Origin: a virus
Strand: one strand, 5' to 3'
IMG/VR virus record: IMGVR_UViG_3300042090_001664
Location: 50,333-82,332 of that record
DNA length: 32,000 bases
Below, piece by piece: positions 372 through 18,110 of the stretch (position 1 is its first letter; each line of letters begins with the position of its first letter). The notes under the pieces are model-generated. The model was not told where the DNA came from. It saw only the letters and a program-made list of their open reading frames with translations, and did not search any database. The position numbers were made by a program, and so were the translations under genes.

Positions 372-424
372 GGTGGCTCCTTCATGCTGGTAGTCTCGAA
401 TCATTAACATGCCTCCAACGCAGC

Positions 425-467
425 GACCCCCGCAGGCTACTCGAAAGCAGCCCCGGGGGTCGTGCGC
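425..467 (-). repeat. Hairpin-GCGCAC junction module, copy 1 of 14
   Basis: + strand gaccccc...gggggtc then gtgcgc. Lies between the stop at 479 and a ggagg. Confidence 0.8.
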
Positions 468-478
468 GCGGTCGTGGC

Positions 479-1207: not shown

Positions 1208-1231
1208 GGTGGTCGTCCCTTTCGACGCACG

Positions 1232-1268
1232 AACCCCGGCGGCTCAGAGGAGCCCCGGGGCGGTGCGC
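1232..1268 (-). repeat. Hairpin-GCGCAC junction module, copy 2
   Basis: + strand aaccccgg c ggctc-agag-gagcc ccgggg then cggtgcgc. Lies between the stop at 1291 and the RBS/ATG at 1207. Confidence 0.8.
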
Positions 1269-1290
1269 GTTGTCGTCCTGGCGAGCGAGT

Positions 1291-1851
1291 CTAACCCGGG
1301 TGGCGGTCCCAAGCGAGCAGCTCGGCGCCACGGAGGTCGAGGTAGTCTCGCTCGTCCTTCTCGGGACCGGCGGCGGTCATCACGTAGGCCCAGACGTGGC
1401 CAGGCTCGGGCTCGTACACGTTCCCGAGCGGCTCGCCTTCCGTGGCGCGCGCGAGGATGTGCTCGAAGCGCGCGCGGTCGTGGTAGCGGATCGCGCCACC
1501 GGCCCCGTGGATGCAGACCGGCCCGACGACGGAGCCGGCCTTCGTGCGCACGGTCACGTCCGCGTACGGGTCGGGCTTCGGTGGCCACGGCATGGGCCCG
1601 TGAACGTACTTGCGCGGCTCGCCCGAAGGCCCGAGCACGCCCGGCACGTCATCGACCGGAGGCTTCGTGTGGAAGCACTGGGCGCGCCGGTGCACGATGA
1701 AGCCGCCGACGGTGGCCGTTGTGGGCCGGCGGTTTGGGTCCGGATTGCAGTAGGTGCACGTGTGGTCCTTCGGATGGTCGTAGGCCCACTCGAGCGTGTA
1801 GTGACGGCGCCCTAGCCCGTCCGGGCCGGTGTCGTCGTACGTGACGAACAT
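1291..1851 (-). CDS. Hypothetical protein (186 aa)
   Basis: C-terminal part of track ORF 1291..2484. ATG at 1851 gives MFVTYDDTGPDG.... The upstream part of that ORF is Arg-rich out-of-frame read-through of the methyltransferase gene. Confidence 0.65.
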   Translation of the reverse strand: MFVTYDDTGPDGLGRRHYTLEWAYDHPKDHTCTYCNPDPNRRPTTATVGGFIVHRRAQCFHTKPPVDDVPGVLGPSGEPRKYVHGPMPWPPKPDPYADVTVRTKAGSVVGPVCIHGAGGAIRYHDRARFEHILARATEGEPLGNVYEPEPGHVWAYVMTAAGPEKDERDYLDLRGAELLAWDRHPG

Positions 1852-1856
1852 CGTGA

Positions 1857-2648
1857 TCACGTGCGCACCGTGACGAGGCAGGTCCGGACGCCGGTGCCGC
1901 TCTCCTCGAACGTGCCATCCGGTAGATCGACGACTCGAGACGTCGGGTACTCGGCGAGCTGCTCGCGGAGCTCGCACGAGGCGTGCGTCTGGCGGAACCT
2001 GAAGCCGGCCGAGACGACCGCGACGAGCCAGCCGCCGGGGCGCAGGAAGCGCAGCGCGTGGGCGACATGGAAGCAGTCGGCTTGCTGCGAAAATGGCGGA
2101 TTCATGAGCACGGCATCGAAGGCCCCGTGTGGCGCGAGCCCAAGGAAGTCGCGCTCGGGTAGCACGGAGAGGCCCGGCTGCCGCGCGAGGGTGGCAGCGC
2201 GCGCGGGGTCGCGCTCGCAGCACACGACGTGCGCGCCGGCGTCCCGCGCCGCCATGGCGATGCGGCCGAGCCCAGCGCTGGGCTCGAGGACGGCCTTGCC
2301 CGGTCCGACCCCGGCGAGCTCGCACATGCGCTTCGCGAGCGCCACCGGCGTCTCGAAGAAGTCGCCCGCGCGCGGGTTCGCAACGGAGCCAGTCAGGATC
2401 GCGGCCTCGATGCGCTCCGCAGCGTCCGTCCCTTCGGGGAAGACGTGCCCGCCGCCGGGGAGCGCCTTCGACGCCTTGGTCCACTTGCCGCCGAGCGCTT
2501 CGAGGATCTCGCTCAACGCCTGGTAGTCCTTGCGGTCGATCTGCTCGGTGTAGCGGAGCGCGACGTTACCCTTGCACGTGAAGCGCGAGAGGATATCGAG
2601 CACGCGGTCATCGACCTTGAGCTGGTCGCCCTTCGTTCGTCTGGCCAT
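1857..2648 (-). CDS. N6-adenine (amino) DNA methyltransferase
   Basis: Track ORF 1857..2693 trimmed to ATG 2648 (gaaagga RBS). SAM-binding motif I-like VLEPSAGLGRI is followed by catalytic motif IV NPPF. Confidence 0.85.
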   Translation of the reverse strand: MARRTKGDQLKVDDRVLDILSRFTCKGNVALRYTEQIDRKDYQALSEILEALGGKWTKASKALPGGGHVFPEGTDAAERIEAAILTGSVANPRAGDFFETPVALAKRMCELAGVGPGKAVLEPSAGLGRIAMAARDAGAHVVCCERDPARAATLARQPGLSVLPERDFLGLAPHGAFDAVLMNPPFSQQADCFHVAHALRFLRPGGWLVAVVSAGFRFRQTHASCELREQLAEYPTSRVVDLPDGTFEESGTGVRTCLVTVRT

Positions 2649-2800
2649 GGTGGTCCTTTCTGGTTGGAAGAGAATGGGAGCCGACCCGGGCAAGAACCCC
2701 CGGCCATATCGCTTGCGCCCCGAGCTTCACCGGGCCCCGCCTTTCGACGGCCGGTCACGCGGCCCGCGCCGCGCGGAGGCTCAGAGACTCCCGACGCCAC

Positions 2801-2837
2801 GACCTCGGCGAGGCTGGTGCCTCCCGAGGTCGTGCGC
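2801..2837 (-). repeat. Hairpin-GCGCAC junction module, copy 3 (variant stem GACCTCGG)
   Basis: gacctcgg...ccgaggtc then gtgcgc, immediately after the stop at 2839. Here ~150 nt of non-coding sequence separate it from the next gene. Confidence 0.7.
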
Positions 2838-2838
2838 G

Positions 2839-3282
2839 TCATGCGTTCTCGACGCCCCACCATGCGCCGTGCTCGTCGGAGCCGTGCGAGGTGACCTTGA
2901 CGTTGTACCGGCGGAAGAGGTCGTCCCAGTCGTCGAGCAGGAAGCCGAACGCGGACCATCCATTCTCGCGATGGCCGAGCAGCCATAGCTCGGAGCCGCG
3001 GAACCGAACGAAGCCCGGCGCGAGCAGGCGCGCGGGGCGCTTCGGCGGAACGCTGGAGCGAAGCGCCGCGATCTTGTCGTTCGCCTCGCGTAGCTGGCGC
3101 CGGAGTTCGGCGACGCGAGCAGCATGGCCCGCGAAGTCGCATGCCATCTCGAACGCGCGCTCGTTGTCCGCCTGGTCGTTCGGGGTGACGAGGATCTTGA
3201 GCTTGTCGGTGTTGAAGCCCGAGCTCCGCGCCCCGCGGGCGTCGCCGCAGTAGGTCGTGACGGCCTCGATGGTCTGGTCCAT
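2839..3282 (-). CDS. Hypothetical protein (147 aa)
   Basis: Track ORF with an aggagg RBS upstream of the ATG and natural composition. No domain recognised. Confidence 0.75.
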   Translation of the reverse strand: MDQTIEAVTTYCGDARGARSSGFNTDKLKILVTPNDQADNERAFEMACDFAGHAARVAELRRQLREANDKIAALRSSVPPKRPARLLAPGFVRFRGSELWLLGHRENGWSAFGFLLDDWDDLFRRYNVKVTSHGSDEHGAWWGVENA

Positions 3283-3301
3283 TGTGTCCTCCTGACGCAG
3301 C

Positions 3302-3335
3302 GACCCGGGCGACCTTGCGGCCCCCGGGCGTGCGC
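3302..3335 (-). repeat. Hairpin-GCGCAC junction module, copy 4
   Basis: gacccggg...cccggg c then gtgcgc. Stop at 3337 and aggagg RBS of 3282. Confidence 0.8.
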
Positions 3336-3336
3336 A

Positions 3337-3858
3337 TCATGCCGCAAGTGCGGCTTCGGCTTGCTCGAACAGATCGGCGAGGCCTTCATCGTACAGCGGC
3401 CCGACCTTGACCGGGAAGATGATGGCCACAAGCCCGTCGCCGGGCTTGACCTCGGTCTCGCGCGAACGCAGGTCGAGGCCGCCGCGGTGCTGGCCGCAGA
3501 CCCACCGGATGGCGAGCACCGGCCCCGCGTCGCGGAGGCTGAGCGAGGCCGTGACCTCCGGGAACTTCCGGGTCACGCGCGCGACCTCCGCGAGCTTCGC
3601 CCGAGGGATCACTACGTTGTGCCCCTCGACGCCGATCGCGATGTGCTTCTGCGCGCTGTCGGCGACGATTGGCCCGAACAGCGGCGCCACGTCGAAGCTG
3701 ACGCCGTTGTCCTCGCGCTTCGCGGTGGAGATGAGCTCCGCGACCGCGTCGCGGCACGCCTTCGCCCGCGCGGCCTGGTTCTCGCGCGCGGTCGCAGCCT
3801 GCGCGGTCTGCTTCGCCGCGCGGTCGGCAGCGAAGTCGTCGCTCCCGTCGGCGCTCAC
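3337..3858 (-). CDS. Hypothetical protein (173 aa)
   Basis: Last 173 codons of track ORF 3337..4221. GTG at 3858 overlaps the upstream TGA (GTGA). The remainder of the track ORF is Arg-rich and conflicts with the 3855..4061 gene. Confidence 0.55.
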   Translation of the reverse strand: MSADGSDDFAADRAAKQTAQAATARENQAARAKACRDAVAELISTAKREDNGVSFDVAPLFGPIVADSAQKHIAIGVEGHNVVIPRAKLAEVARVTRKFPEVTASLSLRDAGPVLAIRWVCGQHRGGLDLRSRETEVKPGDGLVAIIFPVKVGPLYDEGLADLFEQAEAALAA

Positions 3859-4061
3859 AGGCCACGCCGCAGCTTGCGCGCGACCCTCATGTAAAGCCGG
3901 CGCTGCTCGAGCGGCTCGTGACCCTTGCGCGCGGCGCGGGTGAGCGCCTCGGCGGTCTCGCCCGGGTCGAAGCCCTGCGTCGCGAACAGGCTGAGCACGA
4001 GCTTCTCGGTGAACGTCCAGTGGCGCTTCCGCGGCGCCCTCTCCTCGGTTGTGGTCGACAT
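3855..4061 (-). CDS. Small basic hypothetical protein (68 aa)
   Basis: Track ORF 3855..4079 trimmed to ATG 4061 (gggagg RBS). Begins MSTTTEERAPRKRHWTF.... Confidence 0.65.
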   Translation of the reverse strand: MSTTTEERAPRKRHWTFTEKLVLSLFATQGFDPGETAEALTRAARKGHEPLEQRRLYMRVARKLRRGL

Positions 4062-4075
4062 GGTGTGACCTCCCT

Positions 4076-4315
4076 TCAACGGCTCGACCCCGGCGGAGCA
4101 CGGAGGCTCCCCGGGGTCGTGCGCGGCGTGCAGTCGGCGACCGCCTCGGCGAGGGCCTCTTCCGCGGGCTTGAAGGCCGCCTCGGCGAATTCCTCGGCGA
4201 CTTCCGCCGCGACCAGATCATCGACGAACGATTCGGCCGTCTTGAAGCCTGGGGTTCGGGTGGGAATGAGGGAGCATACGAGCGTACGAAACCGGGCGTT
4301 CATGTCTTCGTTCAT
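4076..4315 (-). CDS. Small acidic hypothetical protein (79 aa)
   Basis: ATG at 4315 with a ggagg RBS; this is the tail of track ORF 4076..4804. The last ~15 codons read through hairpin module 5. The stop is the TGA inside the gttgaagg motif. Confidence 0.45.
   Translation of the reverse strand: MNEDMNARFRTLVCSLIPTRTPGFKTAESFVDDLVAAEVAEEFAEAAFKPAEEALAEAVADCTPRTTPGSLRAPPGSSR
4086..4124 (-). repeat. Hairpin-GCGCAC junction module, copy 5
   Basis: gaccccgg...ccggggtc then gtgcgc. Lies inside the 3' end of CDS 4076..4315. Confidence 0.8.
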
Positions 4316-4333
4316 GGGAGCCTCCAACGCCGC

Positions 4334-4369
4334 GACCCCGCCGGCTCCGAAGAGCCGCGGGGTGGGCGC
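4334..4369 (-). repeat. Hairpin-GCGCAC junction module, copy 6 (variant GCGCCC)
   Basis: gaccccgc c ggctc-cgaa-gagcc gcggggt then gggcgc. Stop at 4372, ggagg, ATG 4315. Confidence 0.7.
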
Positions 4370-4371
4370 GT

Positions 4372-4467
4372 TCAGCGGTAGACCGACGGGGAGAAGTAGA
4401 GCAGCGCCGCGAGGGCGGCGCCGACGACGAGCGCCGCGACGTACAGGAAGACGCCGCGCCGGGTCAC
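4372..4467 (-). CDS. Possible 31-aa single-pass membrane peptide
   Basis: GTG at 4467 overlaps the upstream TGA (GTGA). Sequence TRRGVFLYVAALVVGAALAALLYFSPSVYR is one hydrophobic helix. It is the tail of track ORF 4372..4623. Confidence 0.35.
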   Translation of the reverse strand: MTRRGVFLYVAALVVGAALAALLYFSPSVYR

Positions 4468-4832
4468 GTGGCAGCTCGTTCGGCGGTGCGGCTGCCGTAG
4501 CAGGCGTCCGCGCCGTGCTCCTCGAAGAGCTCGACCACCCGAGCGGCGACCGCTTCTTCCGCGGTGCGCTTGCTCGCGAACGGCTTGCCGCCGCCGACTG
4601 CGGCGGCGCGAACCTGCGTGCATCCGGCGCGGCCGACGTAGACGAACCAGGCGCGCAGCGTGGTGCCGGAGTCGATCGGCTCCCGGCGCACGTCGTAATG
4701 CCCCGCGAGGATGTGCAGGTCTTCGAGGCTAAGCCCGTCGGGCGGCGGCTCGGTGTCGTCGGGTGGGTCGCCCTGGTCCGTGGTGTCCGTGGTGAGCCAG
4801 GCATCGAAGCCGGCCGGGAGCTCGCCGGTCAC
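4464..4832 (-). CDS. Hypothetical protein (122 aa)
   Basis: Track ORF. The GTG start overlaps the upstream TGA (GTGA). Acidic/Pro-rich N-terminus and high GC3. Confidence 0.7.
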   Translation of the reverse strand: MTGELPAGFDAWLTTDTTDQGDPPDDTEPPPDGLSLEDLHILAGHYDVRREPIDSGTTLRAWFVYVGRAGCTQVRAAAVGGGKPFASKRTAEEAVAARVVELFEEHGADACYGSRTAERAAT

Positions 4833-5065
4833 GACGTCACCGTGAATGTGGCGAGGAAAGCTCGCATGTTGGCGATCGCCTCGTCGTAATCGCGCTGTTT
4901 GTAGAGCATCTGCGATAGAGCGCGCGCCGCCTCAGCTTCCGTGAGCTCGAGCGGCGGCCCACCAGTTTGCTTCTCGAATCCGATCAGTTCGTACAGGCCA
5001 GGGAAGTCGCCTGGTTTGAACTTCGGGTAGAGCGTGTTGAGCGGGAAAGCCTTCTTCTGTTGCAT
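4829..5065 (-). CDS. Hypothetical protein (78 aa)
   Basis: Track ORF with an aggagg RBS upstream of the ATG and natural composition. Confidence 0.75.
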   Translation of the reverse strand: MQQKKAFPLNTLYPKFKPGDFPGLYELIGFEKQTGGPPLELTEAEAARALSQMLYKQRDYDEAIANMRAFLATFTVTS

Positions 5066-5084
5066 GATGTCCTCCTAGCGCAGA

Positions 5085-5117
5085 ACCCCCGCAGCCTTGC
5101 GGCCCGGGGGTGTGCGC
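5085..5117 (-). repeat. Hairpin-GCGCAC junction module, copy 7
   Basis: aaccccc...gggggt then gtgcgc. Stop at 5119 and aggagg RBS of 5065. Confidence 0.8.
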
Positions 5118-5118
5118 T

Positions 5119-5349
5119 TCACGTGATCTCGATGCGCCCGTCCAGCAAGGCGTTCTCGATGCCCTGGACCTGGTCGGCCCCGCAGTCCTCGCACGGGTAG
5201 CCCTCCGCGTCGGGCTCGGTGTCCCGCACCGGGATGGCGCCGCACGCGAGGCACACGCCATCGTAGCTCTCGCAGTGCTCGTTGTACTCGGCTTCCGTCA
5301 TCGTGGCGACGACGCGGGATGGCTTGGTGACGGTAGCTGTCGTGGTCAT
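5119..5349 (-). CDS. Small zinc-ribbon-like protein (76 aa)
   Basis: Track ORF with two CxxC pairs (CLAC ... CEDC). ATGA overlap with the upstream gene. Confidence 0.7.
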   Translation of the reverse strand: MTTTATVTKPSRVVATMTEAEYNEHCESYDGVCLACGAIPVRDTEPDAEGYPCEDCGADQVQGIENALLDGRIEIT

Positions 5350-5552
5350 CGTGAAACCCTCCTGCGCCGTGGCGCTTCGATGATGTGGTCGCCGCGCTGG
5401 ATCGTCCAGGCAACTTCCTCGGCGAGCTCCGGGTGCTTCGGGCTGAGGAGCTCACGCAGCGACGCGAGCGAGACCGTGTCGACGTCGGCGCGGTCCCAGC
5501 CGAGCGCGTCGGCGCACCGCCGCTTCAGCTGCTCGAGGTCCGGGCCGCTCAC
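5346..5552 (-). CDS. Hypothetical protein (68 aa)
   Basis: Track ORF. The GTG start overlaps the upstream TGA, and its own stop overlaps the next ATG. Confidence 0.65.
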   Translation of the reverse strand: MSGPDLEQLKRRCADALGWDRADVDTVSLASLRELLSPKHPELAEEVAWTIQRGDHIIEAPRRRRVSR

Positions 5553-5908
5553 CGGCGCCCCTTGGCGCGCAGCGCGACGAAGAAGACGCAGCCGAGCACG
5601 AGCACCTCACAGAGCGCGTGCCCGAGGCTGTGCCGGAAGCCGACGACGTGCGCGACGCGGCCGATGAGCCACGAGCACCCGATCGCGAAGGCGAGCGCGG
5701 TCACGGCGAGCTCGCTCGGGAAGCGGCGGAGCGGGTGCGCGATGCGGTACGCGCGCGCGTGCTCGTCGCAGAGCGCGCGGTCCGTCATCCCCCGCATGCG
5801 CGGGTCGGGGATCAGGGTCGTCCATCGGCGCTCGCAGCCGCTCTCGTGGTCGCATGTGTCGTCGTCGGTCTCGGGTTGCGCGAGGCGCGCATCATGGTCG
5901 TTTCGCAT
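5549..5908 (-). CDS. Hypothetical membrane protein (119 aa)
   Basis: Track ORF 5549..5974 trimmed to ATG 5908 (aggagg RBS). Two hydrophobic segments lie in the C-terminal half. Confidence 0.6.
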   Translation of the reverse strand: MRNDHDARLAQPETDDDTCDHESGCERRWTTLIPDPRMRGMTDRALCDEHARAYRIAHPLRRFPSELAVTALAFAIGCSWLIGRVAHVVGFRHSLGHALCEVLVLGCVFFVALRAKGRR

Positions 5909-5928
5909 GGGTTCCTCCTGACGCCGAA

Positions 5929-5964
5929 GCCCGGACAGGCTTGGAAGCCTTCCGGGTCGGCGCT
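5929..5964 (-). repeat. Hairpin junction module, copy 8 (diverged: AGCGCC)
   Basis: gcccgga c aggct-tgga-agcct tccgggt then cggcgct. Stop at 5967 and aggagg RBS of 5908. Confidence 0.6.
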
Positions 5965-5966
5965 GG

Positions 5967-6419
5967 TCACGCACACTCGACGGGAGCGGCGAGGCTTGCC
6001 GGCAGCTTGCCGGCGAATTGCTGATCGACGATGTTGCGCATCCACGTGGTCGTGAAGCTCACGAGGTCGTACTGGATCCGCCGGTTCTCCCTCGTCGGCT
6101 TGCCCTTCTCGTCGAACACGATGGCGACCTGGTAGAGGCCGACCGCGTGCTGTTCGTACGTGACAGGGTACCACTCGCCGGTCTCGGGGCGCCGCCAGTA
6201 GGTGATCTCCGGGTCGCTCATGAGGTCGCCGTTCTGCTCGTAGCGGTGCGCGACCGCGATCATCCCGGGCCCGATGTACTCGACCCCGAGCGCCATGATG
6301 CCGGCGCCGCCGTTGTCGATCTTGCGGTGGTGGCGCGCGTCCTCGTCGCCGAAGTCGTCCGAGAGTCCGGACACGAGAACGTCGAGCACGCGCTGCGCAG
6401 TCTTGGAAACGGGTTTCAT
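5967..6419 (-). CDS. Hypothetical protein (150 aa)
   Basis: Track ORF with an aggagg RBS and globular-looking composition (…AVAHRYEQNGDLMSDPEITYW…). Family not confidently recognised. Confidence 0.8.
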   Translation of the reverse strand: MKPVSKTAQRVLDVLVSGLSDDFGDEDARHHRKIDNGGAGIMALGVEYIGPGMIAVAHRYEQNGDLMSDPEITYWRRPETGEWYPVTYEQHAVGLYQVAIVFDEKGKPTRENRRIQYDLVSFTTTWMRNIVDQQFAGKLPASLAAPVECA

Positions 6420-6441
6420 CGTAGGAACCTCCTAACGGCTC

Positions 6442-6475
6442 GACCCCCGCACCGTTGCCGGTCGGGGGCGTGCGC
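6442..6475 (-). repeat. Hairpin-GCGCAC junction module, copy 9
   Basis: gaccccc...gggggc then gtgcgc. Stop at 6479 and aggagg RBS of 6419. Confidence 0.8.
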
Positions 6476-6478
6476 ATC

Positions 6479-6949
6479 CTACTTGAGCAGGCCGAGATCC
6501 CGGAAGCTCGCGAAGCGCCCGGTCGAGCCGAGCACCACGTGGTCGAGCAGCTGGATCCCGAGCAGCTTGCCCGCGTCGGCGACCTTCGCGGTCATGTGCC
6601 GATCCTCCGGGCTTGGCGTCTCGTCGCCGCTCGGGTGGTTGTGGGCGAGAATGATCGCGGTGCACCCGGTCACGATCGGCGTGCGGAAGATCGTGGCGAT
6701 GTCCGTCGAGCAGGACCCGAGCGCGCCGCGCGCGACCTCGGTCATGCACACGACCATGTTCGCGTTGTTCATGCCGACCACGTACATGACCTCAACGACC
6801 TCTTGCACGATGCGCGGGCCGAGTAGCATCGCGATGTCGATCGATGTGGCGATCGGCTTCGCGGCGGCCGCGCGCTCGCTGGTCATCGCAGGCTCACGCA
6901 GGTAGACCGTCCACCCGGGCTCGAGGCAGTCGCTGTAACGTTGTCGCAT
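6479..6949 (-). CDS. radC: RadC-like JAB/MPN domain protein
   Basis: Track ORF 6479..7051 trimmed to ATG 6949. Carries the JAMM motif ILAHNHPSGDETPSPEDRHMT (HxHPSG..S..D) characteristic of the RadC family. Confidence 0.9.
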   Translation of the reverse strand: MRQRYSDCLEPGWTVYLREPAMTSERAAAAKPIATSIDIAMLLGPRIVQEVVEVMYVVGMNNANMVVCMTEVARGALGSCSTDIATIFRTPIVTGCTAIILAHNHPSGDETPSPEDRHMTAKVADAGKLLGIQLLDHVVLGSTGRFASFRDLGLLK

Positions 6950-6967
6950 GGCATCCTCCGACGCGAC

Positions 6968-7002
6968 GACCCCGGCGGGCCGAAGCCCCCGGGGTCGTGC
7001 GC
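6968..7002 (-). repeat. Hairpin-GCGCAC junction module, copy 10
   Basis: gaccccgg...ccggggtc then gtgcgc. Stop at 7011 and ggagg RBS of 6949. Confidence 0.8.
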
Positions 7003-7010
7003 TGTTTGCT

Positions 7011-7721
7011 TCACGCGGCGGCGGTCGCCGGCGCGGCGGGGAACCACGCATCCAGCCAGTAGCCGGCGCACTCCTCCGTTCCGCTCGCGGCGTAGTCGGC
7101 GAGCCCCTTGACCGCGTCCGCCTGTTCGACCGCGATGTAATCGCCGACTTTCGTGCTGTTCTGCTTCAGCGTGAACACGTGGATTACTTCCACGCCGTCG
7201 GCGGCGAGCTCCGCGCCGAGCTGCTTCGCCCGGTCGGGCTCCTCGGCGAGCAGCTTGCTGAAGCCGAGCACGAGCACGCGCCCGGGCGCGCACGCGTGCA
7301 CGTCGGCGCGGCCGACCTTGCCGCTGGTCCCGAGGTTGCGATACCCGGTGACCTTGCTGGCGATCGTCGCCGGCGACCACATCCCGCGCGACGGCTGCAT
7401 GATGCGGCAGTCGAGCACGTGCGCGACGTCGAGCGCCGCGCACATGCGGCCGAGATGTTCGGGATTCGGCAACGATCGTTGCCCGATGGTGAACACGAGC
7501 CGCGACGGCGTCGTGGCGCGGGTCGCGCTCGGGGGCGGCGCGGGCGTCGGCGCAGGGGCCGGCGGAGGCGTGGCGGCCGCTTGCGGCGCCGGAGCGGGCG
7601 ATGGTGCGGCCTTCGGCGCGCGCGGCGCCTTCGGTGCGGGAGCGCTCGCGGGCGCCTGGGGCGCGCCCGTTGCGGCGAGCAGTGCCGCGCGTGTTGCGTT
7701 TCTGTCGTGCTTCTTGGACAT
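7011..7721 (-). CDS. Hypothetical protein with Pro/Ala-rich linker; C-terminal domain weakly DUF488-like
   Basis: Track ORF trimmed to ATG 7721. The N-terminal ~80 aa are a PAPAP-type low-complexity linker. The C-terminal LVFTIGQRSL...LDVAHVLDCR resembles the DUF488 TIGHS...DVR pattern; this is a weak call from memory. Confidence 0.65.
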   Translation of the reverse strand: MSKKHDRNATRAALLAATGAPQAPASAPAPKAPRAPKAAPSPAPAPQAAATPPPAPAPTPAPPPSATRATTPSRLVFTIGQRSLPNPEHLGRMCAALDVAHVLDCRIMQPSRGMWSPATIASKVTGYRNLGTSGKVGRADVHACAPGRVLVLGFSKLLAEEPDRAKQLGAELAADGVEVIHVFTLKQNSTKVGDYIAVEQADAVKGLADYAASGTEECAGYWLDAWFPAAPATAAA

Positions 7722-7745
7722 GTGGACCCTACCTTTCAACGCGTC

Positions 7746-7781
7746 GACCCCGGCGACCCTTGCGGGCCCCGGGGGATGCGC
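7746..7781 (-). repeat. Hairpin junction module, copy 11 (variant GCGCAT)
   Basis: gaccccgg...ccggggg then atgcgc. Lies between the stop at 7806 and the RBS of 7721. Confidence 0.7.
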
Positions 7782-7805
7782 GTTGTCGGTCGGGCGAGGC
7801 GAGGC

Positions 7806-8408
7806 CTACGCCGTCAGCATGAGGCACTCGACCGCGGCGGGGAGCTCCGCCATCGCCGAGCTCATGTCCTGGAACGTGCCGCCCCCGGCCTCAGCGAGCC
7901 GCCGGAGCGCCGCGACGGCGCGGAGGTCGCGCGGGTTGCCAACGAAGATGCAGTCGAGCACGCCGGGAAGGCTGGCGACCGCGTCGAGACAGTCGTCGAT
8001 CTGGTCGACCTCGCCGTCGCAGATAAGGACGGTGCGCGCCGGGCGCGTCGTGGCCGCGTGACGGATGGCCTTGTGGGCCTGGGTCCACCCGCAGTTCCAT
8101 CCGGCGGTGACACCGGGCTCCGGCAAGCGCTGGCCCTTCAGGACCTCGCGCGTCTCTTCGGCGAAGGCGACCACGCGGGCGAGTCCGCGCAGCGGGTTGA
8201 GCGCCTCGCGCAGGACTTCGAGCCGGCTCTTGCCGTTGATGCCCGACGGGTCCTGCATCGATCCCGAGCAGTCGGCGAGTACGACGACGCCTTCACCGGC
8301 GGTAGCGAGGCGCGCAAGCGTCTCGGCGGTCGTGGTCGCGAGCGCGCCGCTTGCGGCGCTGAACATGTCGGAAAGGTCGGCGGGGACGTGGACGGTGTTG
8401 GTAGTCAT
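7806..8408 (-). CDS. von Willebrand factor A (vWA) domain protein
   Basis: Track ORF trimmed to ATG 8408. Has a beta-strand plus MIDAS-like motif VVVLADCSGSM (DxSxS) and overall vWA-like length and pattern. Confidence 0.8.
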   Translation of the reverse strand: MTTNTVHVPADLSDMFSAASGALATTTAETLARLATAGEGVVVLADCSGSMQDPSGINGKSRLEVLREALNPLRGLARVVAFAEETREVLKGQRLPEPGVTAGWNCGWTQAHKAIRHAATTRPARTVLICDGEVDQIDDCLDAVASLPGVLDCIFVGNPRDLRAVAALRRLAEAGGGTFQDMSSAMAELPAAVECLMLTA

Positions 8409-8435
8409 GGCGGTCTGTTGCTCCTTCAACGCGGC

Positions 8436-8471
8436 GACCCCCGCACGGGGTTACCGTCGGGGGTCGTGCGC
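8436..8471 (-). repeat. Hairpin-GCGCAC junction module, copy 12
   Basis: gaccccc...gggggtc then gtgcgc. Stop at 8473 and gaaggag RBS of 8408. Confidence 0.8.
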
Positions 8472-8472
8472 A

Positions 8473-9288
8473 TCATGCCGCGCGAGCGGCGGCGGAATAG
8501 AGGCGCGCGAGGAACTGCGCCGCGCCGTTCGCGTTTTTGAACGCGACGGGGTCGCCTCCCTGGTCGGGGTGCTTGACCGCGCCCGACCCGATGAGCTTGC
8601 GGAGCGCCTTGCGTACGCCATCTTCCGTGCGCTCGCCCGGGCTCATGCCGAGCACGGACCGCGCGAGGCGTTCGGCCTGGAGCGGGTCAAGCGGCGCAGC
8701 CTTCGGGGGCGGCGGCGGCGCTTGCGGGCGCGGCGGCGGGGTCGCCGCTTGCGGCTGCGGTGCGGGCGACGGTGCGGGTGCGGCCGCTCCGGAGCGCATC
8801 ACGTCGACCGTGGCGCCCGCGTAGTGCGTCGCGACCGCGCGGAGCACGGCATGCTCCTCCGCGATGGGGAAATCCCAAACCGCCGGCGCGGCCTTCGTCG
8901 CGCGGTGGAAACGGTGCCCGATGATCGTGTGGTACGCGGCGACCGCGCCCGGGTTGTACGGGCCGCAGACACCGATCCGGCCGTGCGCGTCGTCGCAGAA
9001 TACGTCTACCTCCGTCGAGGCGTCGTACGTGGTCGGCGCGGCCGCTTGCGCGGGCGGCGCGGCGCGGCGCGTGCGGCGAGGCGCGCTCGCAGGCTTCGAG
9101 CCCGAAAACTCGCACAGAGTGATCCGCGCGCCCGTCGCCTTGTCGGCACCGGACCACAGAACGGCGGTGACCTGCTCGGCCGAGCGGTCGCCCTTGGCGG
9201 TGACCGCGGTCACGAGGTCGCCGGGCGAGGCGTCGCCCTCGACGCGCAGGCACCAAACTCCGCGGTAGCGTGAAAACGTGGCTTGCAT
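8473..9288 (-). CDS. J-domain (DnaJ-like) containing protein
   Basis: Real start is ATG 9288 (gggag RBS) within track ORF 8473..9498. A Pro-rich linker leads to a C-terminal J-domain-like segment, SVLGMSPGERTEDGVRKALRKLIGSGAVKHPDQGGD, with the HPD tripeptide. Confidence 0.75.
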   Translation of the reverse strand: MQATFSRYRGVWCLRVEGDASPGDLVTAVTAKGDRSAEQVTAVLWSGADKATGARITLCEFSGSKPASAPRRTRRAAPPAQAAAPTTYDASTEVDVFCDDAHGRIGVCGPYNPGAVAAYHTIIGHRFHRATKAAPAVWDFPIAEEHAVLRAVATHYAGATVDVMRSGAAAPAPSPAPQPQAATPPPRPQAPPPPPKAAPLDPLQAERLARSVLGMSPGERTEDGVRKALRKLIGSGAVKHPDQGGDPVAFKNANGAAQFLARLYSAAARAA

Positions 9289-9309
9289 GGTAGCTCCCTT
9301 CAACGGCGC

Positions 9310-9345
9310 GACCCCCGCGAGGCGAGGGCCTCCGGGGGTGTGCGC
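9310..9345 (-). repeat. Hairpin-GCGCAC junction module, copy 13
   Basis: gaccccc...gggggt then gtgcgc. The stop at 9345 overlaps the motif. gaagggag RBS of 9288. Confidence 0.8.
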
Positions 9346-9554
9346 TAGATGCGTGGAAAGCGGCGTGGCGCCGTGCGGGGCGTGCACTCCGCGGCGCGAA
9401 GGTCCGCGGCGAGCGCGGCGTCGCGCTGCGCGCACGCCTCCGGGCTCATGTCGAGCCGCGCGCGCCGCGGAAAGAGCTCCTCGAGCGGGCGGGACCATGC
9501 GGGCGTGTTGGGTCGGTTCGGGCGAGCTCCGCCCGCGTCAGGGTGCGCCCTCAC
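9345..9554 (-). CDS. Possible small hypothetical protein (69 aa)
   Basis: GTG at 9554 overlaps the upstream TGA (GTGA); tail of track ORF 9345..9818. GC3 is only moderately high. An alternative internal ATG (MSPEACAQRD...) is possible. Confidence 0.35.
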   Translation of the reverse strand: MRAHPDAGGARPNRPNTPAWSRPLEELFPRRARLDMSPEACAQRDAALAADLRAAECTPRTAPRRFPRI

Positions 9555-9712
9555 GCGCGCACCGTCTTGGCGGCCGCGCCGCGTCCCTTGACGATCGCCG
9601 GGCCGCTGTGGATCTGCTTCGCGGCGCGCTTCGGGCCGCGGTAATCGATCGGGGTGGAGCCTCGCGCGTAGCGGGCCGCGTCGGTCTTGTAGCTCGTCCG
9701 GATGTCTTGCAT
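9551..9712 (-). CDS. Small basic protein (53 aa), first gene of the leftward operon
   Basis: ATG at 9712 with an aggagg RBS. Sequence MQDIRTSYKTDAARYARGSTPIDYRGPKRAAKQIHSGPAIVKGRGAAAKTVRA has very high GC3. Too short to appear in the ORF track. Confidence 0.5.
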   Translation of the reverse strand: MQDIRTSYKTDAARYARGSTPIDYRGPKRAAKQIHSGPAIVKGRGAAAKTVRA

Positions 9713-9737
9713 GGCGTCTAGCCTCCTGAAAAGCGAA

Positions 9738-9772
9738 GCCCCCGCGGTCCGAAGGACCCGGGGGCGTTGCGC
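9738..9772 (-). repeat. Hairpin junction module, copy 14 (variant GCGCAA), in the 5' leader of the first operon gene
   Basis: gcccccg c ggtcc-gaa-ggacc cgggggc then gttgcgc. On the - strand it is followed by ttcgcttttc aggagg ... ATG 9712. No gene lies upstream. Confidence 0.7.
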
Positions 9773-10222
9773 TGGTGTTGCCGGGGTGGTGCCTCGCGCG
9801 CCGTTGTCGTGGCGACATGCGAGGGGCCGGCGGAGCCGTTTTTAGCGGCCGTCGCTCCCTTGCGAAGGGAGCATCCTAGGGGGTAGCGTATGAGCCGGGC
9901 CTAGGGTTGGACTCTCATCGGTTGGGCCGTCCCTTCCGAAGCCGAGGGGAGCGCCCCCCGTCAAGCCTCATGGGTCCGAATCGCGCTTTCGCGCGTCGAC
10001 GGGATCAACTGCTCCCGTTCGGACGATGTTAGAGATCGTGTGTCGAAGCACCGTAACTCCCGGCCTAGTGGCTCGCGACTGACCGCCCGGCCGAACCGGG
10101 TTGCGCGTTGGGAACTGTGTGCGTTGCGCGTCAAGCGCGCGGCCTCGTGCTCGCGGTGCGCGGGGGCACCTGGTCGCCGACGGGGTGAGCCGTAAGCGTT
10201 GCCGATCGCCGGTTCGACGTGC

Positions 10223-10249
10223 CTTATCCGGCCCTGAGCCGTTGCGCGT
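10223..10249 (+). repeat. 27-nt perfect direct repeat, copy 1 (cttatccggccctgagccgttgcgcgt)
   Basis: Identical to 10364-10390; copies start 141 nt apart. Ends in the recurring GTTGCGCGT motif. Confidence 0.9.
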
Positions 10250-10363
10250 CGTAGCTCTCCCTCGCTCCCGGTTACCCCGCGCTTCCCTTCACCGGGCCCG
10301 CGGCTCTCCGTTCGCTCCCGCATTTCGCTCCGTCTTACTGACCCTCCCCGCTTGACCCCGCGA

Positions 10364-10390
10364 CTTATCCGGCCCTGAGCCGTTGCGCGT
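10364..10390 (+). repeat. 27-nt perfect direct repeat, copy 2
   Basis: Identical to 10223-10249. Confidence 0.9.
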
Positions 10391-11196
10391 GAAGGTCGGG
10401 CGCCTTGCGGCGTCCTTCGGTATCGGGCTTTCGACGTTGCCCCGTAAGGGCGGCAAGCGTGCGTTTCGGGACTCACTACCTAGGAACCTGAGCGGTCCTC
10501 GCAGTCAGTCTATGTGCTCCCCTGTCAGCGGTCGGGGCCGTCCGTCCGGCGTTGCGTTGCCCGGCGACTAACCCCTAGAGCAGGCGCCGTGCCTAACCTC
10601 TGCTGACCTGTATTCGGGTACTTAGGACCGTTCCCGGACGTGTGGATTGCATCCGTGGAATCCGGCCGTTTCGGTTGTGCAAGGCGTCCCGTGAAACACC
10701 CGACCCCGAAAACGTCGCGAATCTAGCGTTGTCTCGCTGCGTCAGCGGCAATCGACGGCGCGTCATCCGAATTTGTGGGCCTTATGTTTCCCGTCGGTTT
10801 TCACTTCTGAACGACGGATCGGGCTCCGGAGGCTCGAAAGTGTTTCACGGGGTGCCCCGCTGGCATCCCCCCGGACGGGTGCCCCGCGGGGCCCCCTCGC
10901 CCCGTAGCGGCGCCCGGGCGCACTCTGGCGCCTTCCGGCCGTTCCCCTGGCGCGAAGGCCTTCCGCGCGCCCCGGGGCGCGCGCCTTGTCAGATCCTGGC
11001 GTCCGGGCGCGTCGTTCCCCCGATGGCACCGGGGCGAGCGTTCACGCGGAGCGCTCGCGCGACCGCGCGCGCTGTCGCCCCTGACGCGCGGCGAGCTCGG
11101 CTCGAGCTCCTCGAGCGCTCGACGCCACCCGTCTCCTCGCGGTAGGCTGCGCTCGGACGACGAGCACGCGCCGCGGGCGCGGGAGGGACGACACCG

Positions 11197-11889
11197 ATGC
11201 CGACGTACGAGCTCCAGAAGGACGACCCGAGCCACACAGGGGAAGCGCTGCGGCTCCGCGACGAGCGGAGCCACGACGTGGCGCACATCCTCGGCGAGAC
11301 CGACCCGGTCGTGGTGAAGACGCTCGGCTGGCTGCTCCAGCAGCTCGGGGCGGCGGAGGTCTCGATCCTGGTCGCCGAGGCGCTGGAGCTCGAGGCCGCG
11401 GGCGGGGTATGGGTGGTCGCCACGCAGGCGCGGCGCTCGCTCGGTGGCGTGTTCTTCGCGCTGGTGAAGATGCGGGCGACGCGCGCGTTCAACGCGGCGC
11501 TGTTCCGGCGCCAGCAGCGGGAGGTGGCCCGCGGCTCGGAGAAGGCTCTCGCAGCGGGTGAAGCGGCGCTAGGCGACGCGGTCTCGGCGCTGACGCCCAA
11601 GGGCGAGGAGAACGCATGGCAGCTCGCGAACGCGGCGAAGTTCTGCGCCGCGCGGGCGAAGGCGACCGACGCCTGGAAGGCCAGGGGCACCGGCGGCGGA
11701 CCGTGGGAGCCGAGGAGCATCCAGTGTCCGACCTGCGGGGCGCGCGTTGGGGAGCCGTGCTCGGCGACGGTCACGCTGCACACGCGCCTCGACCCGAGGT
11801 GCCAGCCGCGCGGGAAGGCGCCGCCTCCACCGAGACCGCCGCCCGCGCCGGAGCCCGAGGTGCTCGTGCGGCGCCGGAGGCCCTCGTGA
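11197..11889 (+). CDS. PHAX-like RNA-binding (RNA_GG_bind) domain protein with C-terminal zinc ribbon
   Basis: Track ORF with a gggagggacgacacc RBS. The segment VAHILGETDPVVVKTLGWLLQQLGAAEVSILVAEALELEAAGGVWVVATQARRSLGGVFFALVK aligns by eye to the PHAX RNA-binding domain (...NGGLFIMNGSRRRTPGGVFLNLLK). The C-terminus has CPTCGARVGEPC. Confidence 0.7.
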   Translation: MPTYELQKDDPSHTGEALRLRDERSHDVAHILGETDPVVVKTLGWLLQQLGAAEVSILVAEALELEAAGGVWVVATQARRSLGGVFFALVKMRATRAFNAALFRRQQREVARGSEKALAAGEAALGDAVSALTPKGEENAWQLANAAKFCAARAKATDAWKARGTGGGPWEPRSIQCPTCGARVGEPCSATVTLHTRLDPRCQPRGKAPPPPRPPPAPEPEVLVRRRRPS

Positions 11890-12818: not shown

Positions 12819-13970
12819 ATGGCGAAGCGCCGAAGGCTCACTTTCCAGGGAAAGCCGACGGCGCTTCAGGAGTACGGCGAGCATGGTCCAGGATACGAGC
12901 GCCAGAGTCAAGCGTCCCCGCACGAGGGACCGCTGATGGTCAGGCAACGGATTCAAGCCGAGGCCGGCAGTCTCGAGGCGATTGGCGAAGCCATCCGCGC
13001 CGCCCACGCTAAACTCGGCGACGTGGGGGCCCCGGCGATCTGGGGCATGATCGAGACGTCGGTTGTGGCAACGGGTCTAGCCGCCCTGCGGATGGCATCT
13101 CGCGCGCCAGGAATCCAGCCGGACGAGACGGCGATCGTGCCCGACGACCTTCGCGCGAAACGCGCCGAGGCTGGGCGCCGCGGTGGGCTAGCAAGGGCAA
13201 GCAAAGCAGGCAAGTTGCTTCAAGCAAACCAAGCAAACTTGCTTCAAGCAAACCAAGCAAACTTGCTTGCTTTGCCAGCCGCCGACTCTTCTCACGTGCG
13301 CGTGCCTGCGTCAGATCCCTCTGGATCTTCTCCTGGGACGTCTCCCGGATCTCAAGACCAGAAACCTCATGCTGTCTTGGAGGGGGGTGCAGGGGGGAAC
13401 CTTCCGGCGGCTCCCCGATCGGAGCCTCCGGCTCCGAAGGATGGTCCGGTGACATCGAGGTCGGCGGAGGTGTTCCGGCTCACGTCACCGGAACCCACGA
13501 AGCCACCCTCGAAGCCGAGCCGTCGAGCCGAGGCGGTCGAGGTCGTCGAGCACTGGCAAGCGGCGAGCTACCACGGACGCCGGCCCCTGCTGACCGACGA
13601 ACGGGTCAAGCTGGTCGAGAAGCTCCTCGCCAAAGGGCTCACGGTCGCCGACTGCAAGGCGGCCGTCGACGGTGCCGAGCACGATGACTGGATCATGGGA
13701 CGCGACCCACGAACCAGCGGCAAGCGGTGGACGGGCATCGAGACGATCCTGAAAAACGTCGAGCAGGTCGAGAAACTGCGTGACCTCGCGGACGGCGGAG
13801 CTATCAACGCCAGCCTCGAGCGAAAGCCGTGGCCGTTTCACATCGAGCTTGTTCCCGGAGCTCCGACGACGGGGGACGAGATCCATCGACTCGCGCAGCG
13901 CGTGTTCTCGCCAGAGGCGAGCGTGATTCGCGCGACACGTGACGTCGAACACCTGGAGGCGCACCGATGA
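12819..13970 (+). CDS. Replication-initiator-like protein (conserved phage C-terminal domain, Phg_2220_C-like) with internal repeat array
   Basis: Track ORF. The C-terminal RRPLLTDERVKLVEKLLAKGLTVADCKAAVDGAEHDDWIMGRDPRTSGKRWTGIETIL matches the phage replication-protein C-terminal pattern. Sits immediately upstream of, and is translationally coupled to, the DnaB-type helicase. The start is uncertain (ATG 12819 or ATG 12936). Confidence 0.7.
   Translation: MAKRRRLTFQGKPTALQEYGEHGPGYERQSQASPHEGPLMVRQRIQAEAGSLEAIGEAIRAAHAKLGDVGAPAIWGMIETSVVATGLAALRMASRAPGIQPDETAIVPDDLRAKRAEAGRRGGLARASKAGKLLQANQANLLQANQANLLALPAADSSHVRVPASDPSGSSPGTSPGSQDQKPHAVLEGGAGGNLPAAPRSEPPAPKDGPVTSRSAEVFRLTSPEPTKPPSKPSRRAEAVEVVEHWQAASYHGRRPLLTDERVKLVEKLLAKGLTVADCKAAVDGAEHDDWIMGRDPRTSGKRWTGIETILKNVEQVEKLRDLADGGAINASLERKPWPFHIELVPGAPTTGDEIHRLAQRVFSPEASVIRATRDVEHLEAHR
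13189..13276. repeat. AAGCAA/TTGCTT hexamer array (ori-like iterons), including a 24-nt unit x2.25
   Basis: About 11 AAGCAA/TTGCTT hexamers in both orientations lie within ~88 nt. Exact 24-nt tandem copies occur at 13215-13238 and 13239-13262 (encoding LLQANQAN twice). It is a local AT-rich island inside the initiator-like gene. Confidence 0.7.
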
Positions 13971-16840: not shown

Positions 16841-17202
16841 AGCCGACGACCCCGCTCGACCGCGTCGTCGCGAGCCTGCGCTCGAGGCGGTTCACGCGCT
16901 TCCGCGACGAGGCAGAGCTCCAGCGCCTCATGGCTGGCGTGTTCGCCGAGGACGGCATCGCCGCGCTTCGCGAGCACGCCCTCAGCGCCAAGGACCGCCC
17001 CGACTTCTACTTTGAGGGCGTGGCGGTCGAGGTGAAGATCGGGGGGTCGACGACCTCTCTGGCGCGTCAACTTTTCAGGTACGCGGAGGTCGAATCCGTC
17101 ACCGCGTTGGTGCTAGTCTCCACGCGGGCGAGGCACACGACGATGCCGACAACGATGGTCGGCAAGCCGGTCGTGAATGTGCACGTCGGAGGGTTCGTGT
17201 GA
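16837..17202 (+). CDS. Hypothetical protein, possible PD-(D/E)xK nuclease fold
   Basis: ATG at 16837 (ATGA overlap). [15 protein letters not shown] is consistent with a D...ExK motif. Functional call is weak. Confidence 0.55.
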
Positions 17203-18110
17203 GGTTCACCTGGACGATCTACGCGCTGGCGGAGCCGCTGCCGCTCGCGACCGCGGGCGATGTGCGGTACGTAGGCTTCACCACGAAGACGCCGGAGCAT
17301 CGGCTTCGTGAGCACCGCTACAACGCAACATCCGACGCGGTCGGCTACAAGCAGCTACACGCGCGAAGGAACCGCTGGCAGCGCAAGCTCTACCAGATGG
17401 GAGTGGCGCCCGCGCAGACCGTCCTTGAGTCCGGCACGTGGGAAGGCGATGACCCGGACGAGTTTCGCGCGGTGTGGGCGCCAGCCGAGCGGCGCTGGGT
17501 CGCGCACTACCGCGCGCTCGGGGCCGACCTCACGAACATGACCGACGGCGGAGACGGGACGCCAGGACGGCACCACACGGAAGAGGCGAAGGCGAAGATC
17601 GCCGCGAACACGCGCGCGGCGCAGCTCGGCCGGAAGCACACGCCCGAGACGCGTGCGAAGATGAGCGAATCGGCGCGGCGAAGGCAAGCAGCGCCAGAGG
17701 TCCGCGCTGCGATGAGCGAGAGCCTGCGAAAGCGCGTTTTCACTGCTGAAGCCGTTGAGAGGATGCGGGAGAACGGGCGCAGGAGCGGGCATTCGCCAGA
17801 GGCGCTCGAAAAGCGAGCGGCGCAGATCCGCGGCCGAAAGGCGACGGCCGAGACGCGGGCGAAGCTTTGCGCCGCGGCGCAAATGCGTATCGCTCGGCCA
17901 GGGGCGTTGGACATGCAGCGAGCCAGCCTGCGCGCGGGCAAGCACGTCAAGCTCAACGCCGAAAAGGTTCGCGAGATCCGCGCAGCGGTCGCCGGTGGCG
18001 AGTCCCAATCGTCCGTGGCTGTCCGGTATGGGCTCCACAGTGCTTCGGTCTGCAACATCGTCAAGCGCAAGACGTGGCGTGACGTCCAGGACGAGGTCGT
18101 GGTGGCATGA
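17199..18110 (+). CDS. GIY-YIG homing endonuclease with NUMOD3 repeats and C-terminal HTH
   Basis: Track ORF. Has the IYAL...VRYVGFT...RLREH GIY-YIG module. Repeated [12 protein letters not shown] / [13 protein letters not shown] are NUMOD3-type motifs. C-terminal [25 protein letters not shown] is HTH-like. Confidence 0.85.

Follow-up and report, generated by a model that had tools for sequence, protein, structure and literature searches.

The DNA analysed here is a 32,000-nucleotide (nt) stretch of a viral sequence, positions 50,333 to 82,332 of IMG/VR virus record IMGVR_UViG_3300042090_001664, hereafter called the window and numbered from its first letter. The window has a GC content of about 70% and contains, at positions 9713-11196, a 1,484-nt gap without open reading frames (ORFs) between a leftward and a rightward early operon. 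Two gene blocks are transcribed away from this gap, one running leftward (about 400-9712) and the other rightward from 11197. The leftward block comprises many small genes, of which RadC, DUF6908, a small methyltransferase and a VWA-like protein are recognisable. The rightward block encodes a PHAX-domain protein, a DUF1643 protein, an initiator-like protein, DnaB, a GIY-YIG/NUMOD3 endonuclease, an SNF2 helicase, a DUF5131 protein and a transfer RNA (tRNA) cluster. PHROG matches (phrog_19, 62, 2045, 2554 and 3230) identify the window as phage DNA. Because a public assembly made independently (contig L001) holds the identical sequence, the gap is not an assembly artefact. A first-pass annotation had described positions 9773-11196 as a highly structured hub and a candidate large non-coding RNA (ncRNA) and/or master control region; our analysis leads us, tentatively, to an unusually large early control region of the two divergent operons.

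The gap is non-coding along its whole length. GC content per codon position stays level from about 9720 to 11190, and GC at third codon positions (GC3) lies at 0.85-1.0 in the flanking genes. The ORFs that can be drawn within the gap translate into Arg/Pro/Ala-rich noise, and an independent gene caller made no call there on the identical contig L001. The absence of a credible ORF reported by the first-pass annotation is therefore confirmed over 1,484 nt. A hidden gene was rejected on the GC3 frame plot, the ORF translations and the independent gene caller together, as was a 101-codon GTG ORF at 10840 with an RBS-like (ribosome-binding-site-like) GGAGG, which has a GC content of about 0.75 at second codon positions and an Arg/Pro-rich product. 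A decayed gene was also rejected, since residual periodicity is absent in every frame and the translations of the repeat units described below are unrelated; the same lack of relationship excludes a decayed repeat-domain protein (141 nt = 47 codons). The lower GC content ascribed to the region holds marginally on average (69% versus 70-75% in the flanks), but the gap is heterogeneous, ranging from 58% to 81%, with 58-60% at 10550-10750 and 77-81% at 10850-11100. GC skew does not change sign across the gap.

The left half of the gap carries a phased repeat array. A perfect 27-nt direct repeat (10223-10249 and 10364-10390) grows to 32 nt at 94% identity, giving two copies on the + strand, c2 (10218-10249) and c3 (10359-10390), spaced by 141 nt. 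This repeat, already noted in the first-pass annotation, has no other match in the whole window at up to three mismatches (0.01 expected). The word GTTGCGCGT occurs four times in the gap, always on the + strand, at 10100, 10123, 10241 and 10382, against an expectation of 0.79 for the entire 32 kb; the observed total of five was reached by none of 100 shuffles. This cluster, noted previously, thus exceeds chance, with its second copy corrected from 10122 to 10123 (10123-10131).

The copies at 10100, 10241 and 10382 follow one another in exact steps of 141 + 141 nt, and the first of them ends a degenerate third repeat copy, c1 (10076-10108, + strand), placed exactly 141 nt upstream of c2. When the c3 unit was scanned by Smith-Waterman alignment over both strands of the window (64 kb), c2 ranked first and the best non-self match was 10076-10108, with a score of 23 against a background of 20-22. 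Phase is consequently the main argument for c1, its score barely exceeding the background. A diverged fourth copy, c4 (10466-10503, + strand), which shares the pattern ACT.AC..CC..GG..CCTGAGC.GT by eye, is doubtful: it does not rise above background in the Smith-Waterman scan and does not form a stable hairpin.

Each unit, c1 included, is an imperfect dyad able to form a two-tier hairpin, written for c2 as GACGTGC...CGGC-CCTGA-GCCG...GCGCGTC. The hairpin of the c2 unit has a folding z-score of -3.4 on the + strand and -2.3 on the - strand. Direct reading of the inner stems shows paired changes between c1 (CCCGG/CCGGG) and c2/c3 (CGGC/GCCG), yet both versions stand in one register with respect to GTTGCGCGT and retain a CC..A loop of 5 nt. 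With two versions only, these paired changes are suggestive and fall short of proof. A CRISPR array or mini-array was rejected, as the 27-32-nt repeats lie 109-114 nt apart and only two copies are conserved. A ToxI-like type III toxin-antitoxin RNA was likewise rejected: TRF sees no tandem array at 10076-10500, and the downstream gene is PHAX-like, not ToxN/AbiQ.

Between c2 and c3 lies a 114-nt C-rich, G-poor tract (10250-10363, + strand; purine-rich on the - strand). It consists of 73% pyrimidines, with 49% C and 20% G, and its C/G ratio of 2.4-2.6 is the maximum of the window (99th percentile, 1.92), which bears out the pyrimidine-rich tract of the first-pass annotation. On the + strand the tract folds worse than its shuffles (z about +1.0 to +1.4). 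Its composition agrees with that of rut sites (at least about 80 nt that are C-rich, G-poor and poorly structured), and we predict it to be rut-like. The word TCGCTCC does stand at the three positions given for it (10262, 10312 and 10325), but it is not enriched window-wide (12 seen versus 14.7 expected).

Farther right, a 17-nt inverted repeat with arms 88% complementary, GGCGTCCCGTGAAACAC on the left (10683-10699) and GTGTTTCACGGGGTGCC on the right (10840-10856; both as read on the + strand), brackets the lowest-GC core between them (10700-10839, about 58-65% GC). The core word of the arms, GTGAAACA, occurs twice in the window, solely as this inverted pair (0.17 expected). To judge from its sequence, the segment 10700-10839 is the most likely location of the divergent promoters; it contains a weak promoter-like match on the + strand (GCGTCA-17-TATGTT, 10760-10788). 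Beyond the right arm, a palindrome-rich segment of 79% GC (10861-11196) extends to the first rightward gene. Within it lie one perfect palindrome of 20 nt (10964-10983), a tandem run of three 12-mer palindromes GCGAGCGCTCGC (11034-11072) and, at 11119-11148, a sequence weakly resembling a promoter (TCGACG-18-TAGGCT).

At its left edge the gap adjoins the first leftward gene, a basic 53-amino-acid (aa) ORF (9551-9712, - strand) with an ATG at 9712 after AGGAGG and a GC3 of 0.88-0.92, which the gene caller recognised and which has no Pfam match. Upstream of this gene lies a junction-type element (9710-9774, - strand) made of GCGCAAC, a GC-rich hairpin (9738-9765) and the ribosome-binding site. 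A profile built from aligned upstream regions of the leftward genes describes the element, over roughly 65 nt, as GCGCAC, a GC-rich hairpin CCCCSG...CSGGGG, TCG, CGTTGAAGGAGG and ATG, and matches at 9774-9710 with E 5e-9. Searching with nhmmer identified 14 such elements, all on the - strand between 404 and 9780 and none at 10076-10500. Copies include those at 9353-9289, 8478-8413, 7785-7722, 7010-6948, 6483-6420 and 5122-5063, and further ones at 4375-4311, 4131-4059, 3342-3281, 2845-2788, 1272-1206 and 468-409; the rightward operon has no equivalent.

Because the 53-aa gene is preceded by an element found at 13 other sites of the operon, the start of the leftward transcript must lie to the right of 9774. 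As for the element itself, it might serve to process or stabilise RNA, it might be a pause site or a terminator that requires antitermination, or it might mark a boundary at which gene cassettes recombine. Reading the 9738-9765 hairpin as the terminator of a minus-strand ncRNA was rejected, as it is one of 14 hairpins ahead of ribosome-binding sites. The units of the array were also considered as copies of the junction element, with which they have the word GCCGTTG/GCGCAAC in common, and this was rejected because the nhmmer profile misses 10076-10500. A 19-nt repeat CGGGGTGGTGCCTCGCGCG occurs at 9782-9800 (+ strand) and, with one mismatch, at 9650-9668 within the 53-aa gene (0.39 expected; at least two matches in 5 of 100 shuffles). 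Its two copies sit on either side of the junction hairpin and may be a pair of sites resembling operators where the leftward operon begins.

Folding was evaluated in 150-nt segments as the z-score of the minimum free energy against dinucleotide shuffles on both strands. Over most of the gap z lies between about -1.3 and +1.4, and from about 9800 to 10775 it is near zero or positive on both strands. The segment from 9725, which contains the 9738-9765 hairpin, reaches about -3 on both strands, and that from 10775 reaches -2.5 (+) and -1.9 (-). The array as a whole (10070-10510) scores +0.95 (+) and -0.01 (-), and 9714-10400 scores -0.9 on the - strand. For 10600-11200 the values are -2.6 (+) and -1.9 (-); since both strands score almost alike, this signal points to DNA-level dyads. 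A long imperfect hairpin at 10112-10336 mildly favours the - strand (z -1.68 versus +0.25). The high degree of structure and the hairpin density attributed to the region by the first-pass annotation are thus not seen: folding equals that of shuffles over most of the gap, array included. Among the tetraloop hairpins listed, the GUAA-capped stem near 10440 was recovered, but at 9855-9871, in place of the supposed GCGA tetraloop, seven base pairs close a loop of 3 nt (CTCCCTT-GCG-AAGGGAG).

Known RNA families were searched with the 4,227 covariance models of Rfam 15, applied at the family gathering threshold to the whole window and at E<=10 to the gap. The whole window yielded only the tRNAs at 26.8-27.0 kb. 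In the gap, three chance-level matches were obtained (11-17 bits versus thresholds of 37-53), so that no known structured RNA family is recognised there even at the permissive cut-off, and no tRNA or tmRNA was found in it.

To place the gap among known sequences, we compared its DNA with a phage database (near and distant modes), a plasmid database and IMG/VR (23-mer), without a match, and with metagenomes (23-mer; 0 matches). GTDB genomes (21-mer) returned four matches, which we regard as chance because all lie within unrelated coding sequences with unrelated flanks. A gapped two-copy pattern search gave 48 matches with spacings mostly in multiples of 3; the four that were inspected bear no relation to the gap unit, and three of these are protein-coding repeats. 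The flanking PHAX-like and 271-aa proteins match themselves alone among 5.8 billion clustered proteins, and have no tblastn match in phage records and none in IMG/VR.

The closest phages by DnaB (L002, L003 and L011) show 42-55% identity in that protein, with L002 at 55%, and these phages and L010 have only a divergent layout upstream of DnaB in common with the window. In L002, L003 and L011 the divergent gaps measure 245-313 nt; the value for L002 rises to as much as 865 nt once a doubtful 53-aa call is disregarded. Blastn of the relatives' intergenic regions against the gap revealed no similarity, and those regions have their own unrelated repeats. The gap is therefore about five times as long as its equivalent in most of these nearest, yet distant, relatives, and about 1.1 kb of it appears "extra" given that their gaps are mostly 245-313 nt. 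As far as the distant relatives permit a judgement, the region is unconserved; because a truly close relative does not exist, the RNA idea is left unsupported, not disproved.

The first rightward gene (11197-11889, + strand) encodes a 230-aa protein with an N-terminal PHAX-type RNA-binding domain (Pfam PF10258, E 5.7e-9) that aligns to human PHAX (2XC7) around the GGxF motif. Its Cys-rich C-terminal tail is weakly zinc-finger-like (Phage_zn_bind_8, E 0.004, below the family cut-off). A HMMER search of 1.8 billion representatives returned 143 PHAX homologues, all weak and domain-only, of prokaryotic and metagenomic origin, many of them about 235 aa long with a different conserved C-terminal domain. 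We found no literature on a prokaryotic or phage branch of the PHAX domain, which to our knowledge is otherwise known only from eukaryotic small nuclear RNA export, and no non-coding repeats beside other PHAX-domain genes at the two loci examined.

An iteron-type replication origin lies outside the gap, at 13189-13280, where three tandem 24-nt repeats CAAGCAAACCAAGCAAACTTGCTT sit in an island of 55-59% GC (13150-13300). The iterons fall inside or just upstream of an initiator-like ORF (12819-13970), whose start the gene caller sets at 13470. The block that follows them (13280-13400) is recognisably homologous to L002 9170-9295, which in L002 comes after that phage's own repeats and before the gene that precedes DnaB; the initiator-like proteins of the window and its relatives are unrelated. 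In the divergent gap of L002, two tandem repeats of 42-45 nt spaced by 45 nt (9065-9162), with internal dyad symmetry and the sequence ATGGCTCGGCGGATGGCTCCGAGCCATCGGCTTGCCAT, stand directly upstream of the block in common with the window's origin and are probably the iterons of L002. An origin within the gap of the window was rejected, as contiguous iterons and a low-GC element are absent there and present at 13189-13280. A DnaA box (TTATCC...) was rejected as well, direct reading giving agreement at only 6 of 9 positions with the CACA half missing.

The cellular DnaB proteins closest to the phage helicase come from Sorangium and Polyangiaceae, from which we infer a probable host in Polyangia. 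The window belongs to a novel orphan phage of myxobacterial type, not seen before, and probably one of Polyangia/Myxococcota. Several further features of the window were noted. A homing-endonuclease-like GIY-YIG/NUMOD3 gene (17199-18110) stands among the replication genes, directly upstream of the SNF2 helicase. A direct duplication of 99% identity over 141 nt (25047-25206 and 25604-25775, copies 569 nt apart) takes in an internal part of the 24861-25607 gene and the beginning of the gene after it, and looks like a recent partial gene duplication. In the tRNA cluster (26737-27025), ARAGORN identified tRNA-Ala(cgc) at 26737-26814 and tRNA-Cys(gca) at 26950-27025; a third tRNA, recognised by Rfam score at 26839-26945, has a 51-nt insertion in the anticodon-arm region and may be intron-containing or degenerate.

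Taken together, these data are best accommodated, with a probability we would put slightly short of even, by a gap that serves as an unusually large early control region of the divergent operons and carries their start and control sites. The "master control region" half of the first-pass proposal fits the position and the anatomy of the gap, which is non-coding, lies between divergent operons and is furnished with repeats and dyads, with a compositional extreme in the tract and a leftward direction set at its left edge by the junction element. From this anatomy we infer the placement of the promoters, a role of the units as regulator sites, Rho loading on the tract and a role of the GC-rich dyads as operators or leader hairpins. 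Further support comes from the single orientation of the repeats, from the position of c1 exactly in phase, from the inverted repeat around the lowest-GC segment, from the similar z-scores of the two strands over the palindromes on the right, from the location of the iteron origin outside the gap, and from the relatives, whose same divergent layout upstream of DnaB includes gaps with repeats of their own.

In such a control region, two back-to-back promoters would occupy the AT-richest core, at about 10700-10840. As the 17-nt inverted repeat brackets this core, both transcripts or promoters would see the same element, with a mirrored arm downstream of each promoter following the logic of lambda OL/OR or nutL/nutR. 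The leftward transcript would begin to the right of 9774. The units c1, c2 and c3, dyads of roughly 33 nt in 141-nt phase, may be recognition sites for a phage or host regulator, read either as DNA dyads or as hairpins within a long leader. The 114-nt tract would load Rho on any plus-strand transcript, insulating or attenuating transcription across the hub, and for the rightward operon the palindromes at 10861-11196 might act as operators or as hairpins in the leader. The basic 53-aa protein and the PHAX-domain/zinc-finger protein, encoded by the first gene on either side, are candidates for the effectors.

Several observations weigh against a control region. No convincing sigma-70 or sigma-54 promoter was detected in the gap, where matches are at or below background: a relaxed scan gave 7 of 12 matching positions at best, and sigma-54-like matches occur at the background rate. 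A sigma-54 promoter within the repeat unit was rejected on its GG-to-GC spacing of 14, not 12, and a search for a promoter motif common to the other intergenic regions of the window returned only chance 10-mers. No repressor, Cro-type helix-turn-helix (HTH) protein or other DNA-binding regulator is recognisable among the scanned ORFs of the window, the only regulator-like matches being weak ones, namely the zinc finger in the 230-aa protein (E 0.004) and an Ant-like match at 22141-23502. The 141-bp spacing is no integer multiple of the helical repeat, which disfavours simple cooperative binding along a single DNA face. That c2 and c3 are identical over 27 nt next to flanks that cannot be aligned may be explained just as well by a recent duplication or gene conversion without function, and about 1.1 kb of the gap may be dispensable, given that relatives mostly manage with 245-313 nt. 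Moreover, every functional assignment within the gap is deduced from its sequence features.

Alternative readings at the RNA level start from the same features. The array could be transcribed as a leader or ncRNA whose phased hairpins, possibly together with the tract (purine-rich on the - strand, C-rich on the + strand), offer a platform or decoy to an RNA-binding protein, with the PHAX-domain or 53-aa protein as candidate partner and antitermination or host-factor sequestration as the role. Such an array would suit the genuine PHAX-type RNA-binding domain encoded by the neighbouring gene, the folding of the c2 unit far below its shuffles, the mild preference of the 10112-10336 hairpin for the - strand and a leftward transcript which, starting upstream of 9774, could span the array. 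The paired stem changes between c1 and c2/c3, in the same register, suit a hairpin over a fixed DNA half-site, and the inverted repeat would put the same 17 nt into both divergent transcripts. We nevertheless consider it unlikely: two stem versions leave the "covariation" anecdotal, the whole array folds no better than shuffles on either strand, the scans located neither promoter nor terminator, the two other PHAX loci examined have no adjacent non-coding repeats, and an Rfam match is absent. Its most specific form, in which hairpin repeats and the C-rich/purine-rich tract constitute a new phage RNA regulatory platform (antitermination or decoy) read by the PHAX-domain protein, is a long shot. 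A single large, stably folded ncRNA of about 1 kb or more, of the kind of GOLLD, ROOL and HEARO, is no more credible, even though a long gap in an otherwise tightly packed genome, many local GC-rich hairpins and the + strand signal at 10600-11200 (z -2.6) would accord with it. None of the 4,227 Rfam models matched at E<=10, z is near zero or positive on both strands over about 9800-10775, the strands are nearly equal at 10600-11200 as with DNA palindromes, and the 114-nt tract at 20% G adds little structure. No homologue exists in any collection searched, and the relatives' gaps are shorter and unrelated, so that the large structured ncRNA of the first-pass annotation finds no support and the gap should not be annotated as one.

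Readings at the DNA level without a regulatory role were also weighed. The gap might be largely non-functional DNA, the product of a 141-nt tandem triplication together with remnants of deleted genes or a recombination scar, which would be tolerated between the promoters, with the 27-nt identity explained by recent origin. Its length relative to the 245-313 nt held here by most relatives, the exact 141-nt phase with diverged interiors, resembling an old tandem duplication, the perfect 27-nt identity next to unalignable flanks and the lack of conservation anywhere are all in line with this history. Yet residual codon periodicity is absent in every frame, the translations of the three units are unrelated, and the array retains no leftward junction-type element; packaging-size pressure on phage genomes and the clustering of independent non-random features here (inverted repeat, extreme C/G tract, 20-nt palindrome) also speak against it, and we find it improbable. 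A DNA-handling site, in which the phased repeats form a replication origin, a partition centromere or a pac/cos site, appears very improbable. Direct repeats of one orientation do adjoin the replication module, and each arm of the inverted repeat holds half of a canonical ParB site, TGTTTCAC/GTGAAACA (10691-10698 and 10841-10848, 150 nt apart), words that form arrays or full palindromes in some viral contigs. However, the textbook iteron origin at 13189-13280 is followed by a block common to L002, and GC skew keeps its sign at the gap. The full 16-bp parS palindrome TGTTTCACGTGAAACA has no match at up to three mismatches anywhere in the window, and ParA, ParB and terminase were not found among its proteins. 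In unrelated viral contigs (L012 3589-3606 and 3749-3766; L013 5020-5360; L014 10978-11147) the GTGAAACAC words build complete palindromes or extended arrays of direct repeats; their contexts there are unrelated, and terminase genes adjoin them in the two cases checked. A parS site was accordingly rejected, as the window has half-sites only and no ParB, and the words elsewhere stand beside terminase genes.

The gap is thus neither a single large structured RNA of a described family nor a replication origin, and the practical value of this result is for now negative: no structured ncRNA should be annotated here, and the replication origin belongs at 13.2 kb. Should the control-region reading hold, an uncultured phage of myxobacterial type would run its early switch without a recognisable repressor, using phased dyads, a rut-like tract and mirrored elements around back-to-back promoters. 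This would give useful access to regulation in a group of phages of which virtually no member has been characterised. If instead the array acts at the RNA level, a phage PHAX-domain protein would be tied to a repeat RNA, which would be new, and a platform read by that protein would be the first function for the prokaryotic/phage branch of the domain.

Comparison with known systems places the gap at varying distances from each. Like GOLLD, ROOL and HEARO, it occupies a long non-coding interval of a phage genome in which tRNA genes are also present; unlike them, it lacks a covariance-model match and a folding-energy signal, and it lies 15 kb away from the tRNA cluster. Tandem arrays of small-RNA genes are represented by NsiR1 in Nostoc and LhrC in Listeria. 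The gap resembles them in having units of about 100-140 nt in one orientation, each with a conserved hairpin, but it conserves only about 30 nt per unit, with two copies well conserved, and its units have neither a promoter nor a U-tailed terminator. Iteron-type origins likewise combine direct repeats with nearby initiator and helicase genes; their repeats, however, are contiguous, 17-24 bp long and placed by an AT-rich element, an arrangement that the window has at 13189-13280. In the T7 group, the early promoters A1, A2 and A3 reportedly lie about 125 nt apart, and the gap shows a similar layout of same-orientation element copies, at a comparable spacing (roughly 125-140 nt) in non-coding DNA ahead of an early operon. 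Read in either direction, however, the gap unit departs from the sigma-70 and the sigma-54 consensus alike, a word like the T7 RNA polymerase promoter core (GACTCACTA) occurs solely in the doubtful c4, and a gene for a single-subunit RNA polymerase is not in the window.

The lambdoid early region consists of PL/OL and PR/OR with nutL/nutR and the Rho-dependent terminator tR1 with rutA/rutB. It differs from the gap in its cI/Cro-type HTH genes, boxA/boxB-like nut sites and recognisable promoters, none of which were found here, and in having cI and rex between PL and PR where the gap runs for about 1.5 kb without a gene. The three phased 141-nt units have no lambdoid counterpart, and there is no sequence homology. 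The organisation is nonetheless alike in several respects: a non-coding hub between divergent early operons, the same element inverted on either side of the promoter zone (here a putative one), palindromes that precede the first rightward gene, an unstructured tract, rich in C, of the Rho-loading kind, as at tR1 with rutA/rutB, and small basic or RNA-binding proteins as first operon genes. The feature is real and somewhat unusual, and we would class it as an enlarged form of a phage early control region, with a repeat array for which candidate partners can be named.

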